From NCBI GenBank assembly GCA_034428515.1, contig DAOUHQ010000015.1, positions 144,660-208,659 of the forward strand: a DNA stretch of 64,000 bases, in the 5' to 3' direction. This DNA is from Dehalococcoidia bacterium (GTDB lineage: Bacteria > Chloroflexota > Dehalococcoidia > UBA6926). Both the position numbers and the translations under genes were made by a program. Of the stretch, positions 6,968-14,579 are shown piece by piece; the first letter of the stretch is position 1; each line of letters starts with the position of its first letter. Under the pieces are notes generated by a model, which was given only the letters and a program-made list of their open reading frames with translations, searched no databases and was not told where the DNA came from.

Positions 6968-7269
6968 GGTGGATGTCCTGCCTTCCCGGGTACGGCTTTC
7001 CCTTCTCGATGCGCTACTCAGCGCGGGGACAAGACGCACCACGGACAACAGGCAGACCTGGCGGCTTGAGAGGTGTTCCACACCTGCCCCTCCGCACGTT
7101 GAAGCACGAACCGGCCGCCATTGAACGACCAGCCCGGATGCTCAGCGTGATGAGCCGCCATCTGCTGTAGTTCGTCCCTGCCGCCTCCCCGCGCTGTCGG
7201 ACGGCAGTTTTTCGAACTCAGTCCAAAACTATTGTCTACCAACTGTCAAGCGAACGGAGAGAATCAGTC

Positions 7270-8013
7270 TCATTTCCTTCGCCCCAACATCGCAATATGC
7301 TTGGGCATTCCACGCAGCCGAATCTTGACGATTTCCGCCAGCGTCTGCGGGCCGTGGTGGAGGCGTACGGTGCTCATCTCGCCATATCTCCATGTCACAG
7401 GCAGCTCCGCCACCCGCATCCCCCACCTCCGCGCCAGGTACAAAATCTCCGCATCAAACGCGAACCCGTCCACACGTTGCCCGTCGAATAGCAGTTCCGC
7501 CGCCGCCGCCCGGAACACCTTGAATCCGCACTGGGTGTCTGACACCGATAGGCCGAGAATGAGTCGTGTCGCCCGGCCAACGATTCGCCCACCGATGCGG
7601 CGTGACAGCGGCTCCCCGCTCCGTTCGGCTCCGCCTATGGATCGCGACCCAATCACCACGTCCGCGTTCTGAGTCGCCTCCACAAAGGGGGCAATCATCT
7701 CCACTGGCACTGCCAGGTCAACATCCATGAACAAACGCACCGCGCCCGTCGCCTCCAGCATCCCCCGCTTGACAGCGTGACCCTTGCCCCGATGCGGCAA
7801 GGAAAGAAGGCGCACGCGGGGCGATTTCTCGGCGAAGTCCCGCGTGATGGACTCCGTGTCATCCGTACTCCCATCACTCGCGATAATCAGCTCCGCGTTG
7901 GGATAGTGGGCGTCAAGATAGGCGGTCACCTCGTCGAGGGCGTCGGGCAGCCGCGCCTCCTCGTTGTAGGCGGGGATAATGACGGACAGCGAGGGCGCGG
8001 CCACTTCAGTCAC
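7270..8013 (-). CDS. family 2 glycosyltransferase (polyprenyl-phosphate sugar transferase-like)
   Basis: LSVIIPAYNEE...ASDGSTDDT, DXD-like DVDL, GT2 fold markers. Confidence 0.8.
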   Translation of the reverse strand: MTEVAAPSLSVIIPAYNEEARLPDALDEVTAYLDAHYPNAELIIASDGSTDDTESITRDFAEKSPRVRLLSLPHRGKGHAVKRGMLEATGAVRLFMDVDLAVPVEMIAPFVEATQNADVVIGSRSIGGAERSGEPLSRRIGGRIVGRATRLILGLSVSDTQCGFKVFRAAAAELLFDGQRVDGFAFDAEILYLARRWGMRVAELPVTWRYGEMSTVRLHHGPQTLAEIVKIRLRGMPKHIAMLGRRK

Positions 8014-9267: not shown

Positions 9268-10194
9268 TTAAGGCTCCGAGACGACATGCGCGCCACGACC
9301 TGACGGAGAAAGGACGAGCGCTCGACCGGGGATATTTAACTTCCGCCCGGACTCGGCCATCGCGTCGGCGACGACTTCAGAGTTTCTCGGCGAACTCATT
9401 GCCATGATGGTCGGCCCCGCGCCGGAAAGGAATGCCGTATATGCCCCTGCCTGCTTGGCTGCTTGGGTAAGGGGAGCGAGCCAGGGCACAAGCTCTGCAC
9501 GATACGGCTGATGCAGCCTGTCCTCGGTTGCCAATGCCAGGTCCGCCCAGTGACGCGTTGTGAACGCATGGATAAGCAAAGCCGTCCGCGCAACGTTGAA
9601 AGCCGCATCCCCAAAAGGAACCTGCCGAGGGAGGGCGGATCGGGCGTCTGCAGTTGAAAGCATGTGGTCAGGAATAAACGCGATACAATCAAGACCATCC
9701 GGGAATGCCAGTTGGCGGGCAACCGGAGCCCCGCCCTCCGAAGCGACGGCGACGCACACTCCCCCCAGCAGAGCAGGCGTGGCATTGTCAGGATGTCCCT
9801 CGATCCTGGCAGCATCGGTAATCATGCCGTCCATGTCTCGTTCACGTCCGGCAACCGTATTGGCGATGAGAAGGCCGGCTGCGCACGCGGCTGCGCTGCT
9901 TCCCAGTCCACGCGCCAACGGGATCGCGTTGGATGCCGTTATACGCAGTGGAGGCAGGGTAACGCCAAGGCCTGCGGCGCCGATATAGGCGGCACGAAAG
10001 ATGAGATTGGAGTTAGCGGGGCCGGAGATTTCGTTCTCGCCCTCGCCTCGTATCTCGAAGCGGTTTGCATCCGCAGATTCAACGTGGAGATCAAGCCATA
10101 GATCGAGAGCCATCCCGACGGCGTCAAAGGCAGAGCCAAAATTCGCCGTCGAGGCAGGTGCGCGCACAGAAAACGGAGTAAAGTCACTGGTCAT
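9268..10194 (-). CDS. thrB: homoserine kinase (ORF runs to 10239; ATG 10194, MTSDFTPF, is the likely start)
   Basis: GHMP kinase motif GLGSSAAACAAG; NFGSAFDAVGMALD. Confidence 0.85.
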   Translation of the reverse strand: MTSDFTPFSVRAPASTANFGSAFDAVGMALDLWLDLHVESADANRFEIRGEGENEISGPANSNLIFRAAYIGAAGLGVTLPPLRITASNAIPLARGLGSSAAACAAGLLIANTVAGRERDMDGMITDAARIEGHPDNATPALLGGVCVAVASEGGAPVARQLAFPDGLDCIAFIPDHMLSTADARSALPRQVPFGDAAFNVARTALLIHAFTTRHWADLALATEDRLHQPYRAELVPWLAPLTQAAKQAGAYTAFLSGAGPTIMAMSSPRNSEVVADAMAESGRKLNIPGRALVLSPSGRGAHVVSEP

Positions 10195-10312
10195 AGCAGC
10201 CACACGATAAGTATAGGGGTGAGCTGAGCACTCCACCAATAGAGGTCATCCTGAGCAATTCGATATGATGTGATGAGTGCAGATCATATCCGTGCTTCAA
10301 TATGAGGAACCC

Positions 10313-11434
10313 ATGGCATACTTCTTGAATCTTTTTAGCCCCGAAACGTGGCGTGCCTTTAGGGACACCGGGGCTTCAATGACCGGGTTCAGACTCAGGC
10401 ACTTGGGCTTTGCAGAACAGAACGTCCAGATAGGGGACATCTTCGTCTGTTACTTGACAAGGGTTTCTCGATGGTGCGGAATTTTGGAGGTTGAAACGAC
10501 TGCTACCGAAGATGATAGTTACTGGCATGAGGACCTCGATATATTCCCGGTTCGATTCAGGGTGAAACCTTTAGTTGTATTAGATCCTGAAAAAGCGATA
10601 CCAGTCTACGACGACAGTGTGTGGGAAAGACTTAGCTTCACTCGAAATTACCAAAGAGGTACGAAGACGTGGACGGGTTTCTTCAGGACATCCCTAAATG
10701 AAATCAATGAGCAGGATGGAGGGTTCCTCGCCGATCTGCTTAGGCAACAGCAGGAGGAGGCAATGGCCTACCCGCTTTCTCTAAAGGAAAGCCGGCAACT
10801 CACGGCCAAAAACCGCGTTCGAACACCTGATAGGGTAGTAGAAGTCGAGGTTCCTGACGACGATGATGAAGACTTGCTTGGAGAACGTCCTGCTCCAGCC
10901 TCCATACAAGATCATCGCACTTCAATCAAGTATCAGGCGAAAGTAGCCGAGATTGGCGCTAAGATGGGTTTCCGTATTTGGGTTCCAAGGCACGACAAGG
11001 CTCGTGTATTGGAACACGTTTCAGAATCTTTCCATTCCGAGTTTCTAGATATACTTCCTCTAAACTACGACGACACAACACTAAGGACGATTGAACAGAT
11101 TGACGTTCTCTGGCTCAAGGGACGCTCAATGGCTAGGGCATTTGAGATAGAACACACTACAGCAATCTACTCAGGGCTACTACGTATGGCTGATCTATTG
11201 GCCCTGCAGCCAAACATGGACATCCGTTTACATATCGTAGCTCCGCTCGAAAGGAGAGACCGCGTCATTAGTGAATTGCGTCGCCCGGTTTTCTCGCTAT
11301 TGGAAAGAGGGCCTCTATACGAACAATGTTCCTACTTGTCTTATGATTCGATAGACGACGTGGGTGGTGCCGAGCATTTAAGCCACATGAGCCAAACGAT
11401 TCTGGATGAGTATGCCGAAACTACTGAAGTGTAG
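10313..11434 (+). CDS. PUA/EVE-like domain fused to a restriction-endonuclease-fold nuclease (putative modification-dependent endonuclease)
   Basis: The N-terminus matches EVE/PUA-like architecture (MAYFLNLFSPETW...IGDIFVCYLTRVSRWCGILEV...VRFRVKPLVVL). The C-terminus carries an REase/Vsr-like catalytic core (IDVLWLKG...AFEIEHTT). The gene is AT-rich relative to its surroundings. The ORF opens at 10277, but the ATG at 10313 with a GAGGAA RBS fits an EVE domain start. Confidence 0.6.
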   Translation: MAYFLNLFSPETWRAFRDTGASMTGFRLRHLGFAEQNVQIGDIFVCYLTRVSRWCGILEVETTATEDDSYWHEDLDIFPVRFRVKPLVVLDPEKAIPVYDDSVWERLSFTRNYQRGTKTWTGFFRTSLNEINEQDGGFLADLLRQQQEEAMAYPLSLKESRQLTAKNRVRTPDRVVEVEVPDDDDEDLLGERPAPASIQDHRTSIKYQAKVAEIGAKMGFRIWVPRHDKARVLEHVSESFHSEFLDILPLNYDDTTLRTIEQIDVLWLKGRSMARAFEIEHTTAIYSGLLRMADLLALQPNMDIRLHIVAPLERRDRVISELRRPVFSLLERGPLYEQCSYLSYDSIDDVGGAEHLSHMSQTILDEYAETTEV

Positions 11435-11449
11435 CTCGGGTACATTACG

Positions 11450-12250
11450 CTAACTCACCTTAATCCCCATATTCCGCTCCGCCACCGCCTCCCACAACCG
11501 TATCGCCCTCTCTCGTCCTCCCTGCTCTGAGGGATCGATGATCAGCCTGCCGGAGCGCGTGTAGGAGCCGATTGTCTGTAACTCGCTGCGGTTCGGTGCC
11601 CACGTCCAGGGGCGGTCGCGAGCGTCCAGCAGAGTAGACTCCGCCAATTCACGGTCGAGCGGCACGGCGATGGGCAGCCTCAGCGACGCGTCAGGGTCGC
11701 CCTTCCACACCCAGAACTTGTCCAGCGCGCGTGAATGGTACGCCGCCCGGCGTATGTGCGCGTTCGCGCCGAACACTGTGAAATCCCGCCCCGCCGGGTG
11801 CGTCTCAACGTCACGCAGCACGTCCGCAACGCGAAAAAACCCGATCAAGTAGAAACCCGATGGCCCCACAAATCGATCCTCACCGTCATGCCCAACCAGC
11901 CGCGCCAGGAACACGATGTAGTCGCCGGGACCGCACGGCTTCAGTCCAGCGCCGCGCCCAGTTCTCCGAGGATCATCGCCATAGGTGAACGTGCGGAACT
12001 CCGGGTCGTCATGCAGGCGGTCATTCCACCGCGAGACCGGCGCATAGTCGGCGAGTGTCTTGTCGGGGTCGTTATATGCGGCAAGCTTGGGATACGCCGG
12101 CAGCGTCGGCGACCACAGCCTCCTCTCCTCCGGGATGGGCAAGAACTCAAACGTGCCGTCGGGAAAGACAGGGCTGCGGAGCGCGCCATGAGAGGCGTTC
12201 ACTCCCACATTGACCATGAAGATACGGGCGGTGGGATCGACAGAGACCAA
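11450..12250 (-). CDS. conserved hypothetical protein
   Basis: 266-aa ORF with host-like GC and no recognised motif; convergent with the EVE-nuclease gene. Confidence 0.55.
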   Translation of the reverse strand: MVSVDPTARIFMVNVGVNASHGALRSPVFPDGTFEFLPIPEERRLWSPTLPAYPKLAAYNDPDKTLADYAPVSRWNDRLHDDPEFRTFTYGDDPRRTGRGAGLKPCGPGDYIVFLARLVGHDGEDRFVGPSGFYLIGFFRVADVLRDVETHPAGRDFTVFGANAHIRRAAYHSRALDKFWVWKGDPDASLRLPIAVPLDRELAESTLLDARDRPWTWAPNRSELQTIGSYTRSGRLIIDPSEQGGRERAIRLWEAVAERNMGIKVS

Positions 12251-12300
12251 TTCCTGCTCCGGTCAGCGGTTGGGTGTCAGCGCGGCATAGATAGAGATTC

Positions 12301-13473
12301 GTGCAACAATCACGTATGAATCGTAGCAGTCACTCCGAGGCTCTGGCTCAGGCCGTCAAGGATGCTGCCAAGCAGGCAGGCTTTGACGTCGTTGGCATTG
12401 CGTCCACGGATGTGTTCCATGAGCGCGGAGAGACGGCGAAAGAACGCGTCGGCGAGGGACTCATGGACGGCCTGCCCTGGTACACGGAGGAGCGCGTGGA
12501 CCGTGGCATGGATCCGTCCACCATGCTGCCCGGCGCCCGCTCCATCATCTCCCTCGCGCTCAGCCACCACCATGAGGGCAACGCCGAGGTGCCGGACAGC
12601 GCGCCCCGTGGCCGCATAGCCCGCTACGCGTGGGGCGAGGATTATCACCGTATCTTTGCCCGCAAGGTGCGAGCATTCATCGAGTCACTGCCCGCGATTA
12701 CCGGCGTAGAGGACATCGGCACGCGCTGGTACACGGACACGGGCCCGATGCTCGACCGCGCCGTGGCGGAGCGGGCTGGCGTGGGCTGGTTCGGCAAGAA
12801 CACCAACATCTTGACCTCGCAGGGATCATGGATGCTGTTGGCGCAGATCATCACGACGCTCGATCTCGTGCCGGATGAACCGCTCAAGAAGACGTGCGGG
12901 GCGTGCAACATCTGTGTCGATGCATGCCCAACCGGAGCAATCGTCGCTCCCTATGTGCTCGACAACCGCAAGTGCATCTCCTATCTCACCATCGAGAATC
13001 GCGGCCCGATACCTCGCGAACTGCGACCACTCATCGGCGACTGGATTTTCGGCTGCGACATATGCCAGGACGTCTGCCCCGTCAACCGCAAGGCGCAGGT
13101 TGGAAAGGCGTATGCGGAACTAACACGCGACGCGGACAACCGCGCCCGCCCGGAGCTCGTAGAACTGCTGGAACTGGATAACGACGGCTTCCGCGAGCGA
13201 TTCAGGCAGAGCGCCGTGCTGCGCGCAAAACCGGCGGGCATGCGCCGAAACGTTTGTATCGCCCTCGGCAACATCGCCGATCCCGCCACAGTGCCCCCAC
13301 TAGCCCGCGTCCTGAGAGAAGACTCATCCCCCATAGTCCGGGGCCACGCCGCATGGGCGTTGGGGCGAATCGGGACTGAGGAGGCCATAGCAGCCCTCAG
13401 AGAGGTGACTGAGGGAGAGACGGACGCCGGAGTCCAGGGCGAAATCGAGTGGGCACTGGCAGATTGCTCTTAG
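12301..13473 (+). CDS. queG: tRNA epoxyqueuosine reductase QueG
   Basis: Two 4Fe-4S ferredoxin motifs (CGACNICVDACPTGAI; CDICQDVCPVN) and a C-terminal HEAT-like repeat (HAAWALGRIG). Confidence 0.85.
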   Translation: MQQSRMNRSSHSEALAQAVKDAAKQAGFDVVGIASTDVFHERGETAKERVGEGLMDGLPWYTEERVDRGMDPSTMLPGARSIISLALSHHHEGNAEVPDSAPRGRIARYAWGEDYHRIFARKVRAFIESLPAITGVEDIGTRWYTDTGPMLDRAVAERAGVGWFGKNTNILTSQGSWMLLAQIITTLDLVPDEPLKKTCGACNICVDACPTGAIVAPYVLDNRKCISYLTIENRGPIPRELRPLIGDWIFGCDICQDVCPVNRKAQVGKAYAELTRDADNRARPELVELLELDNDGFRERFRQSAVLRAKPAGMRRNVCIALGNIADPATVPPLARVLREDSSPIVRGHAAWALGRIGTEEAIAALREVTEGETDAGVQGEIEWALADCS

Positions 13474-13540
13474 CTGCTGAGCAGCCTGTGCTGCCAAATT
13501 GTGTAACGACAGAAGTGTAGTTATAGTTGTGTTGTGACAA

Positions 13541-13843
13541 ATGAACGAGCAGATAGTTTGGTTCTGGGACCCGGTCAAGGATGAAGCGAACTGGCGAAAG
13601 CATAGGGTGGATTTCGATACAGCCCAATTCGTCTTTGACGATCCCATGGCAACGACCATTGAGGACTCATTTCCGAGTGAGACCAGATTCAAGACGACAG
13701 GCATGGTCGGTTGGCACGTATTGGTGGTTGTACATACCGTGTCGGAATTCAGGGCTACGGAAGGATACGCAGTCGGTCGCATAATCAGCGCTCGGCGGGC
13801 TTCGGGACAAGAGCGGAGGAGCTATGAAGAAGAAACACGATAA
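13541..13843 (+). CDS. brnT: BrnT-family ribonuclease toxin (DUF497)
   Basis: WDPVKDEANWRKHRVDFDTAQFVFDDP matches the BrnT signature. AT-rich, overlaps its antitoxin gene by 20 nt. Confidence 0.8.
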   Translation: MNEQIVWFWDPVKDEANWRKHRVDFDTAQFVFDDPMATTIEDSFPSETRFKTTGMVGWHVLVVVHTVSEFRATEGYAVGRIISARRASGQERRSYEEETR

Positions 13844-14126
13844 TCTGCCGCCTGATGTGAAGAAGAAACTGGCCTTACTGGACGATATGTCAGACGAAGA
13901 CATCGACTTTAGCGACATTCCCGAGACTACCGACTGGACAGGTGCCCGGCGGGGCATGTTCTATAAGTACCGCGTCATCAAGAAGCAGGTAACGCTGCGG
14001 TTGGACGCGGGGATCCTGGCATGGTTCAAAGCGCAGTCGGACGATGGCCGCGGCTATCAAACGCGCATCAACGAGGCGCTGCGCGAGCACATCCGCCAAC
14101 AGGTTGAAAAGACCAAATCAGACTAG
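13824..14126 (+). CDS. brnA: BrnA-family antitoxin (RHH/CopG-like)
   Basis: About 100 aa, in the position of brnA downstream of and overlapping brnT (C-terminal RINEALREHIRQQ). Confidence 0.75.
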   Translation: MKKKHDNLPPDVKKKLALLDDMSDEDIDFSDIPETTDWTGARRGMFYKYRVIKKQVTLRLDAGILAWFKAQSDDGRGYQTRINEALREHIRQQVEKTKSD

Positions 14127-14162
14127 GGACAATTTGGCCCGCCAATAACGCGGCGCGGCTCC

Positions 14163-14510
14163 CTATGGCTTCGGGCCGAAAGCGTTGTCGCCGTTGGTGC
14201 CTTCCATGAACCCGCATTCGATGATGATCCAGAAGGGGCCTATCAGCGGGATGAAGTTGACCAGTCCCCACCAGCCGGTCTTGCCTCGGTCATGAAAGCG
14301 CTTGGCGACAACTGCATAGTAGATCCAGATGCTGAGTGGGATGAATAGCAAGTAGACCACTATTGCCAGGATTTCGGCTACCAAGGTGAGCACGGCGACG
14401 GCTATCGCCGCAAGTATGCCGATTGCAATTATCGCCAGAACACCCTTGATCCAGAAGTCTGAACGACCTATTCGCCCGTCGTAGCTAAGTAGCACTGACT
14501 GAATTGGCAT
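14163..14510 (-). CDS. DUF805-family inner membrane protein
   Basis: RIGRSDFWIKGVLAIIAI and YAVVAKRFHDRGKTGWWGL are typical of DUF805/YhaH. GGAGGTG RBS before ATG 14510. Confidence 0.7.
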   Translation of the reverse strand: MPIQSVLLSYDGRIGRSDFWIKGVLAIIAIGILAAIAVAVLTLVAEILAIVVYLLFIPLSIWIYYAVVAKRFHDRGKTGWWGLVNFIPLIGPFWIIIECGFMEGTNGDNAFGPKP

Positions 14511-14579
14511 CTCACACCTCCATGCCGGTTGACCGCCGTTGTCAGGGAATGTCGGTTGGCCCAAGCATAACAGCCACCG

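Follow-up and report, generated by a model that had tools for sequence, protein, structure and literature searches.

The fusion of a PUA-superfamily sensor to a nuclease is the standard design of modification-dependent restriction endonucleases (PMC6765204, PMC12191111), and the open reading frames (ORFs) that encode such fusions are rarely located near methyltransferases (PMC6765204). The EVE-containing enzymes that have been studied experimentally are the EVE-HNH proteins VcaM4I and TspA15I and the EVE-DUF3427-PD-(D/E)XK protein YenY4I (PMC6765204, PMC7897488). The EVE domain of VcaM4I flips 5-methylcytosine (5mC) or 5-hydroxymethylcytosine (5hmC) into a base pocket formed by P24, W82 and Y130, and the nuclease is auto-inhibited by the EVE domain together with the linker (PMC7897488). 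In 2020, Bell, Wolf and Koonin catalogued proteins with an EVE-PD(D/E)XK architecture and predicted that these are of Type IV (PMC7641849). A further enzyme of relevance, R.NmeDI of Neisseria meningitidis, recognizes RCCGGY and cuts double-stranded DNA (dsDNA) 12/7 nt away on both sides (PMC2095814). Here, a gene is described in which an EVE domain precedes a nuclease domain of the R.NmeDI type (NmeDI_C), located in a 64,000-nt stretch (hereafter, the window) of the genome of a Dehalococcoidia bacterium (assembly GCA_034428515.1, contig DAOUHQ010000015.1, positions 144,660 to 208,659; coordinates below are those of the window). By analogy with the enzymes above, the product is probably a solitary, nucleoside triphosphate-independent, modification-dependent restriction endonuclease (Type IV or Type IIM-like), and the gene itself is a mobile single-gene cassette inserted at a chromosomal hotspot.

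A program-made list of ORFs placed the gene at 10277-11434 on the forward strand, and the same boundaries had been adopted in an earlier sequence-only reading of the window. The ORF and its stop are real, but the start is ATG 10313 and not GTG 10277. The coding sequence (CDS) is assigned to 10313-11434 (forward strand, 373 amino acids (aa) and a TAG stop) because 120 of the 120 best homologues start at the residue equivalent to ATG 10313 (MAYFL...), a Shine-Dalgarno sequence (GAGGA) lies upstream of this codon at 10304-10308, and an identical protein on a Joint Genome Institute metagenome contig was called there as a 373-aa gene. The gene is AT-rich, as the earlier reading had noticed: its GC content is 48.5%, whereas the window as a whole has 60.7% and the 300-nt intervals next to the gene have 61-66%. 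The peptide motifs quoted in that reading are all present and occupy invariant columns of the family alignment. Sensor and nuclease share one polypeptide, and no methyltransferase is linked, two hallmarks of Type IV enzymes.

The N-terminal domain (aa 1-150; 10313-10762, forward strand) is an EVE domain with a PUA-like pseudobarrel fold, an assignment drawn from a family profile, a Foldseek structure comparison and the Pfam annotation of homologues. Searched singly, the window protein has no Pfam match at E ≤ 1, a phmmer search of PDB gave nothing useful, and NCBIfam returned one weak match, to the archaeal PRK00809 family. A profile built from 51 diverse family members and searched against PDB sequences matched PH1033 (2hd9, the founding EVE structure; E = 2.7e-14, residues 1-142 against 1-144), MJECL36 (E = 1.1e-12) and two YTH readers of N6-methyladenosine (m6A; E = 0.004-0.01), and PF01878 (EVE) is matched by 21 of 35 close homologues. 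In the AlphaFold (AF2) model, residues 1-150 have a predicted local distance difference test (pLDDT) score of ~90, and Foldseek with the full-length model returned PH1033 (E = 1.7e-7; template modeling (TM) score, 0.77), with numerous YTH domains ranked next. The EVE/PUA-like character proposed from sequence for the N-terminal region is thus sustained by the matches to PH1033 and MJECL36, the TM score and the Pfam annotation. Residues conserved within the family include T12, W13, G41, D42, Y47, R53, W54, G56, P86, W104, W120, F124 and D135, amongst which the aromatics W13, Y47, W54, W104, W120 and F124 may contribute to a pocket for a flipped base.

As Foldseek with the full-length model returned matches to the N-terminal domain only, the C-terminal domain (aa 201-373; 10913-11431, forward strand) was modeled separately. 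Residues 195-373 modeled alone with a diverse alignment reached a pLDDT of 95.4 and a predicted TM score of 0.91, with marginal Foldseek matches to BsaWI (E = 0.08), EcoT38I (E = 0.1) and MspJI (E = 1.2); the structures that rank highest are those of dsDNA restriction enzymes, and the fold is shared by NucS and other repair nucleases. Sequence comparison connects the domain to R.NmeDI, with PF27126 (NmeDI_C) a precomputed match for the identical database protein (P0001) and for 120 of the 120 top homologues, and residues 210-343 matching positions 172-311 of a 351-position PADLOC model of Type II restriction endonucleases (E = 8.5e-14). The model and these matches indicate homology to the C-terminal half of R.NmeDI and a PD-(D/E)xK fold, with the alpha-beta-beta-beta-alpha-beta core of solved restriction endonucleases, in which the motif would take the form D...ExE. 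Based on conservation, the candidate catalytic residues are D264 (11102-11104), which is invariant and just ahead of strand beta2 in the model secondary structure, and E278 (11144-11146) and E280 (11150-11152), which form a nearly invariant E-x-E at the end of beta3; D294 (11192-11194), R324 and Q208 are further invariant residues. Glutamate in place of lysine at the candidate third catalytic position is a BamHI-like variant. The sequence-only reading had offered a core that was either PD-(D/E)xK or Vsr-like, of which the first option stands on fold and NmeDI homology, while structure comparison of the domain gives nothing that points to Vsr. A 50-aa stretch of the nuclease core retains 89% identity between phyla despite saturation at synonymous sites; a constraint at the DNA or RNA level was considered as the cause of this invariance and rejected, as third-codon positions are saturated there too.

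The two domains are joined by a variable linker (aa 151-200; 10763-10912, forward strand), the least conserved segment of the protein (32-48% identity between syntenic alleles; family mean, 35%) and one of low pLDDT in the model. It contains a conserved motif, VVEVEVPDDDDED (aa 175-187; 10835-10873, forward strand), in which a strand of the pattern x-V-x-V-x-V-P precedes an acidic run and V176, E177, V178, E179 and P181 are nearly invariant. NmeDI_C proteins whose N-termini are unrelated to this one retain the VVEVEVPDDDDED motif, and the strand and acidic run may serve the nuclease module as a DNA mimic or in auto-inhibition.

The family is large and patchily distributed. A word-indexed protein search gave >4,700 matches to the window protein, and an exhaustive search of representatives clustered at 50% identity gave 2,358 clusters at E ≤ 1e-3, including 296 at E ≤ 1e-30. 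In the GTDB representatives (one genome per species), 394 loci were confirmed, corresponding to ~0.2% of species genomes. Carriers belong to the Chloroflexota (mostly Dehalococcoidia/SAR202), Acidobacteriota, Nitrospirota, Gemmatimonadota, Alpha- and Gammaproteobacteria, Deinococcota, Latescibacterota, Planctomycetota, Actinomycetota and Binatia. The proteins are 50-66% identical to the window protein and scattered over at least 10 phyla, the patchy occurrence, suggestive of horizontal gene transfer (HGT), that the sequence-only reading had proposed to look for. Gene GC is below that of the flanks in 78 of 81 loci (mean difference, -9.6 points).

There is no recurrent genomic partner. All-against-all clustering of the ORFs within 4 kb of the gene in 80 loci recovered no recurrent neighbor family, the largest cluster being a paralog-rich luciferase-like oxidoreductase at eight loci. 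When the nearest large ORFs on either side (133 in total) were assigned to Pfam families, they proved to be a mixture of housekeeping types, with a restriction-modification (RM) methylase domain in two. No methyltransferase is present in the inserted segment, nor does one recur near the gene in the 80 loci. On plasmids, only distant relatives of the C-terminal domain were seen (30-38% identity, annotated as 'type II restriction endonuclease'), and the two plasmid homologues that were inspected have no adjacent methyltransferase. The nuclease module also occurs behind an Mrr_N and EVE combination, with the N-terminus of this sibling matching the PADLOC mREase_IV model (E = 3e-9), behind ParB_N and HTH_ParB, and behind several unassigned N-termini. 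On these architectures, NmeDI_C behaves as a portable cleavage module in a modular pattern of sensor plus cleavage. Stand-alone NmeDI_C proteins (156-312 aa) were considered as a separate form and set aside, as most are truncated EVE fusions that start inside the EVE domain or at an internal methionine.

The gene is a true islet, a mobile single-gene cassette in a chromosomal hotspot between thrB and a gene with an Nmad3 domain. The inserted segment (~1.23 kb; 10221-11449, oriented with the gene on the forward strand) consists of the 5'/promoter region, one CDS and a 15-nt tail. On its left flank, outside of the islet, is the homoserine kinase gene thrB (9268-10194, reverse strand; start ATG 10194, GHMP kinase domains, 308-aa gene call), which is 81-93% identical in syntenic genomes and has a leader that is conserved in the empty site; ~118 nt separate ATG 10313 from the true thrB start. 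On the right flank, also outside, is the Nmad3-domain gene (11450-12250, reverse strand; PF18754, E = 4.2e-19) with host-like GC. The gene order of the window (GT2-AK-thrB-[gene]-Nmad3-QueG-...-DUF3179) is fully preserved in two Dehalococcoidia metagenome-assembled genomes, L005 and L040, with DNA homology lost at ~10221-10225 and regained at ~11465. Their flanking proteins are 81-99.5% identical to those of the window (Nmad3, 90-91%), whereas the EVE-nuclease is only 65% (L005) and 56% (L040) identical. The three syntenic alleles are not mutual nearest relatives, ranking 6th to 164th in one another's match lists, and third-codon positions are saturated across the family. Because of these two properties the alleles are regarded as ancient, and sequence comparison indicates that the slot was refilled by recombination or HGT rather than that the gene diverged in place.

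Other states of the slot were found through Nmad3 homologues and their contigs. The slot is empty in L084, where DNA alignment confirmed that 29 bp separate Nmad3 from thrB and that the Nmad3 stop runs straight into the CCCCTATACTTA...ATGACCAGTGACTTT thrB leader, and in L088, where the gap is 78 bp. In L082 and L083 it holds an HI1420-type antitoxin-like gene of ~100 aa, and in L085 a 161-aa ORF of unknown kind. A repeat search around the islet found no flanking repeats, att sites, transposase or recombinase. The empty sites in two related genomes bear out the single-gene, HGT-like islet proposed in the sequence-only reading, which was also correct in describing the convergent neighbor as a host gene, Nmad3 being a conserved chromosomal resident. 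The placement between thrB and a convergent gene was likewise confirmed, except that the spacing between the two stops is 15 nt and not 16: the TAG of the gene occupies 11432-11434, the reverse-strand stop of the neighbor 11450-11452, and the spacer 11435-11449, in which no terminator-like site was found. Nmad3 was rejected as a functional partner, having host-like GC, remaining next to thrB where the islet is missing (L084 and L088) and occurring in only two of the 80 other family loci, both of them the syntenic ones.

The mechanism proposed by analogy would begin with the EVE domain binding DNA and taking up a flipped-out modified base in its pocket, in the manner of the VcaM4I EVE domain and of SRA domains. 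Capture of the base would tether, and probably de-repress, the NmeDI-type PD-(D/E)xK domain, which with D264, E278 and E280 and a divalent metal would cut both strands at a fixed short distance from the mark. No methyltransferase would be needed because the host presumably lacks the mark, and marked phage or plasmid DNA would be destroyed. The enzyme is probably a dimer or a higher oligomer. From the characterized relatives we infer DNA as the substrate, base flipping, cleavage at a distance and a role in defense. The candidate Type IV, modification-dependent activity put forward in the sequence-only reading is supported as far as computation reaches, with cleavage itself predicted from the homologous enzymes.

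Several observations weigh against a modification-dependent restriction endonuclease. The closest matches of the EVE domain are standalone EVE proteins from archaea and YTH readers of m6A in RNA, and VcaM4I was not detected at E ≤ 10 in the EVE profile searches. DNA is therefore only a predicted substrate and, as PH1033 and YTH domains resemble the domain more than VcaM4I does, N6-methyladenine (6mA) would be as plausible a ligand as 5mC or 5hmC. The PADLOC Type IV models give no match to the window protein, a search for phage-encoded homologues found none, and no published biochemical or phage data were found for any member of the family. The loci are mostly set amid housekeeping genes and not in defense islands, the third catalytic position is glutamate and not lysine, and the conservation of the 50-aa core is unusually high for a restriction enzyme. 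With this core conserved across phyla and the linker motif common to the sibling architectures, an account that departs from the preferred one was also considered, though we think it unlikely: rather than a typical, rapidly evolving restriction enzyme, the protein would be a deeply conserved sensor-nuclease of single specificity. Its ligand would be YTH-like, such as 6mA in DNA or a modified base in RNA, the acidic linker would hold it inactive by auto-inhibition or as a DNA mimic, and its alleles would represent an ancient balanced polymorphism at a strain-variable hotspot.

To a similarly small degree, the protein could be an RNA-directed toxin or abortive-infection nuclease, in which the EVE domain would read a modified RNA base (for example, m6A or a base in tRNA or rRNA), the PD-(D/E)xK domain would cut RNA and infection would lead to growth arrest rather than to cleavage of phage DNA. 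The YTH m6A-RNA readers, as the next matches after PH1033 in both fold and sequence, suit such a protein, as does the classical view of EVE domains as RNA binders (PMC6765204), and the strong conservation of the protein would fit a conserved cellular RNA target. The same slot in relatives carries genes of the toxin-antitoxin type (the HI1420-type antitoxin), and a BrnT/BrnA pair is 2 kb away, but no antitoxin or immunity gene accompanies the EVE-nuclease gene in the 80 loci. The nuclease half argues for DNA, as R.NmeDI, the only characterized homologue of the module, cuts dsDNA (PMC2095814), the closest structural matches are dsDNA restriction enzymes, and the sibling architectures have the DNA-binding domains Mrr_N and ParB.

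The homology to R.NmeDI and the match to the PADLOC Type II model could instead denote an orphan or conventional Type II enzyme that cuts an unmodified sequence, with its methyltransferase elsewhere and the EVE domain serving only in DNA binding or recognition. Such an enzyme is harder to reconcile with the data and we hold it to be improbable. NCBI labels relatives of the C-terminal domain as Type II, including the plasmid homologues, but the homology is limited to positions 172-311 of the 351-position NmeDI profile, which form its cleavage half, and a linked methyltransferase is lacking from the 80 loci (RM methylases in 2 of 133 flanking ORFs), from the islet and from the two plasmid homologues. 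Further, transfer of a lone restriction endonuclease with activity on unmodified DNA would kill the recipient, yet this gene moves as a single-gene cassette, and EVE domains are modified-base readers (PMC7897488, PMC7641849). A housekeeping or repair nuclease (NucS- or Vsr-like) that senses damaged or mis-modified host bases, or a domesticated or inactive remnant of one, is very improbable despite the high purifying selection on the protein, the housekeeping surroundings of its loci and the fold shared with NucS and other repair nucleases, given that the gene is present in only ~0.2% of species genomes and missing at the same site in close relatives, that its GC is consistently atypical and its alleles are replaced at one locus, and that intact candidate catalytic residues make an inactive remnant unlikely.

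Several features of the islet bear on its expression and history. An imperfect inverted repeat of 11 nt, GATATGATGTG / CAGATCATATC (10262-10290; 91% complementary in the repeat search), lies within the inserted segment 23 nt upstream of the start codon and is, by its position and sequence, a possible operator or promoter element; no sigma-70 consensus promoter was found in the 5' region of the gene. In the empty-site genomes, thrB follows Nmad3 in the same orientation after a gap of 29-78 bp, and the two genes are probably co-transcribed there. The islet parts thrB from Nmad3, so expression of thrB-AK-GT2 must start in, or read through, the inserted 5' region. A TAAGTATAGGGG box ahead of thrB is conserved in every slot state. 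In L005, ~360 bp of extra sequence (7131-7497) follows the EVE-nuclease gene and, read by eye, seems to be a small HI1420-type antitoxin-like ORF, as occurs alone in the slot of L082 and L083; this ORF would suggest successive insertions at one point.

Defense content varies in the wider neighborhood too. A second strain-variable slot (13474-14579) is found 2 kb from the islet, between QueG and DUF3179, and contains a BrnT/BrnA toxin-antitoxin pair (13541-14126) and a DUF805 gene in the window. In relatives (L040 and L082-L085), this second slot contains Macro and BrnA, PIN and an unknown gene, Macro alone, DUF805 alone, or nothing. Just past GT2, L085 has a Type ISP restriction-modification gene (9889-10783; ISP_coupler, N6_Mtase, Eco57I and Type_ISP_C), and a Fic-domain gene is at the equivalent position in L082. 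Between the two slots (11450-13473), Nmad3, a predicted nucleotide-modification domain, and QueG, an epoxyqueuosine reductase, form a divergent pair that is conserved in all close relatives. In the distant genome L089 (Nmad3 45% identical), the two genes are co-directional with a 2-nt gap, and two other distant genomes do not have the pairing. The pairing may link Nmad3 to queuosine or 7-deazaguanine chemistry.

If active, the window protein would be the first characterized EVE-PD(D/E)xK (NmeDI_C) modification-dependent endonuclease. Members of the family are numerous in environmental phyla that are hard to culture (Dehalococcoidia/SAR202, Acidobacteriota, Nitrospirota and Gemmatimonadota), and, if the assignment is true, phages with modified DNA would be a relevant pressure there. 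MspJI, AbaSI and VcaM4I are useful epigenomic reagents, and an enzyme that recognized a new mark and cut at a set distance from it would be valuable as a tool. The slot between thrB and Nmad3 provides a natural example of the turnover of defense cassettes (empty, antitoxin-like, and three ancient alleles) without a recombinase or repeats. The gene is an addition to a class already understood and opens no new class; what is mildly unusual is the strong conservation of the nuclease core and the clean turnover of single-gene cassettes at one slot.

Compared to the known systems, the architecture and predicted role are those of the EVE-PD(D/E)XK proteins of Bell et al. (PMC7641849), a computational catalogue that may include the NmeDI_C subfamily. 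The combination had been called uncharacterized in the sequence-only reading, which remains accurate in that no experimental study, and in the searchable literature no paper on an EVE-NmeDI_C enzyme, was found, but the architecture was already catalogued (PMC7641849) and the C-terminal domain has a family of its own in PF27126. YenY4I (PMC6765204) belongs to the same architecture class, though it has an extra DUF3427 domain and ~600 aa. With VcaM4I and TspA15I, the protein shares an N-terminal EVE domain, a linker and a C-terminal nuclease in one polypeptide of similar size and a solitary gene with no methyltransferase, and base flipping and auto-inhibition by reader and linker would be expected here as well. 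The nuclease of those enzymes is HNH, whereas here it is PD-(D/E)xK (NmeDI_C), and the EVE domain is of the PH1033/UPF0310 subgroup, without a detectable sequence match to VcaM4I. R.NmeDI has the homologous C-terminal module (PF27126), and the catalytic chemistry and cleavage at a distance are likely the same; its sequence-specific N-terminal half is replaced here by the EVE domain, and its cognate C5 methyltransferase, the gene of which overlaps its own, has no linked counterpart. MspJI, AspBHI and LpnPI are likewise solitary enzymes with a PUA-superfamily reader and a C-terminal PD-(D/E)xK domain, and cut at a fixed distance from the modified base, as would be expected here, but their reader is SRA-like instead of EVE and their nuclease is of a different family. 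At the level of the locus, the closest parallel is the Immigration Control Region of Escherichia coli, where one slot between conserved genes is occupied by alternative restriction genes or alleles depending on the strain, in contrast to which the slot between thrB and Nmad3 takes a single 1.2-kb gene without a recombinase or repeats and has antitoxin-like genes as its other occupants.

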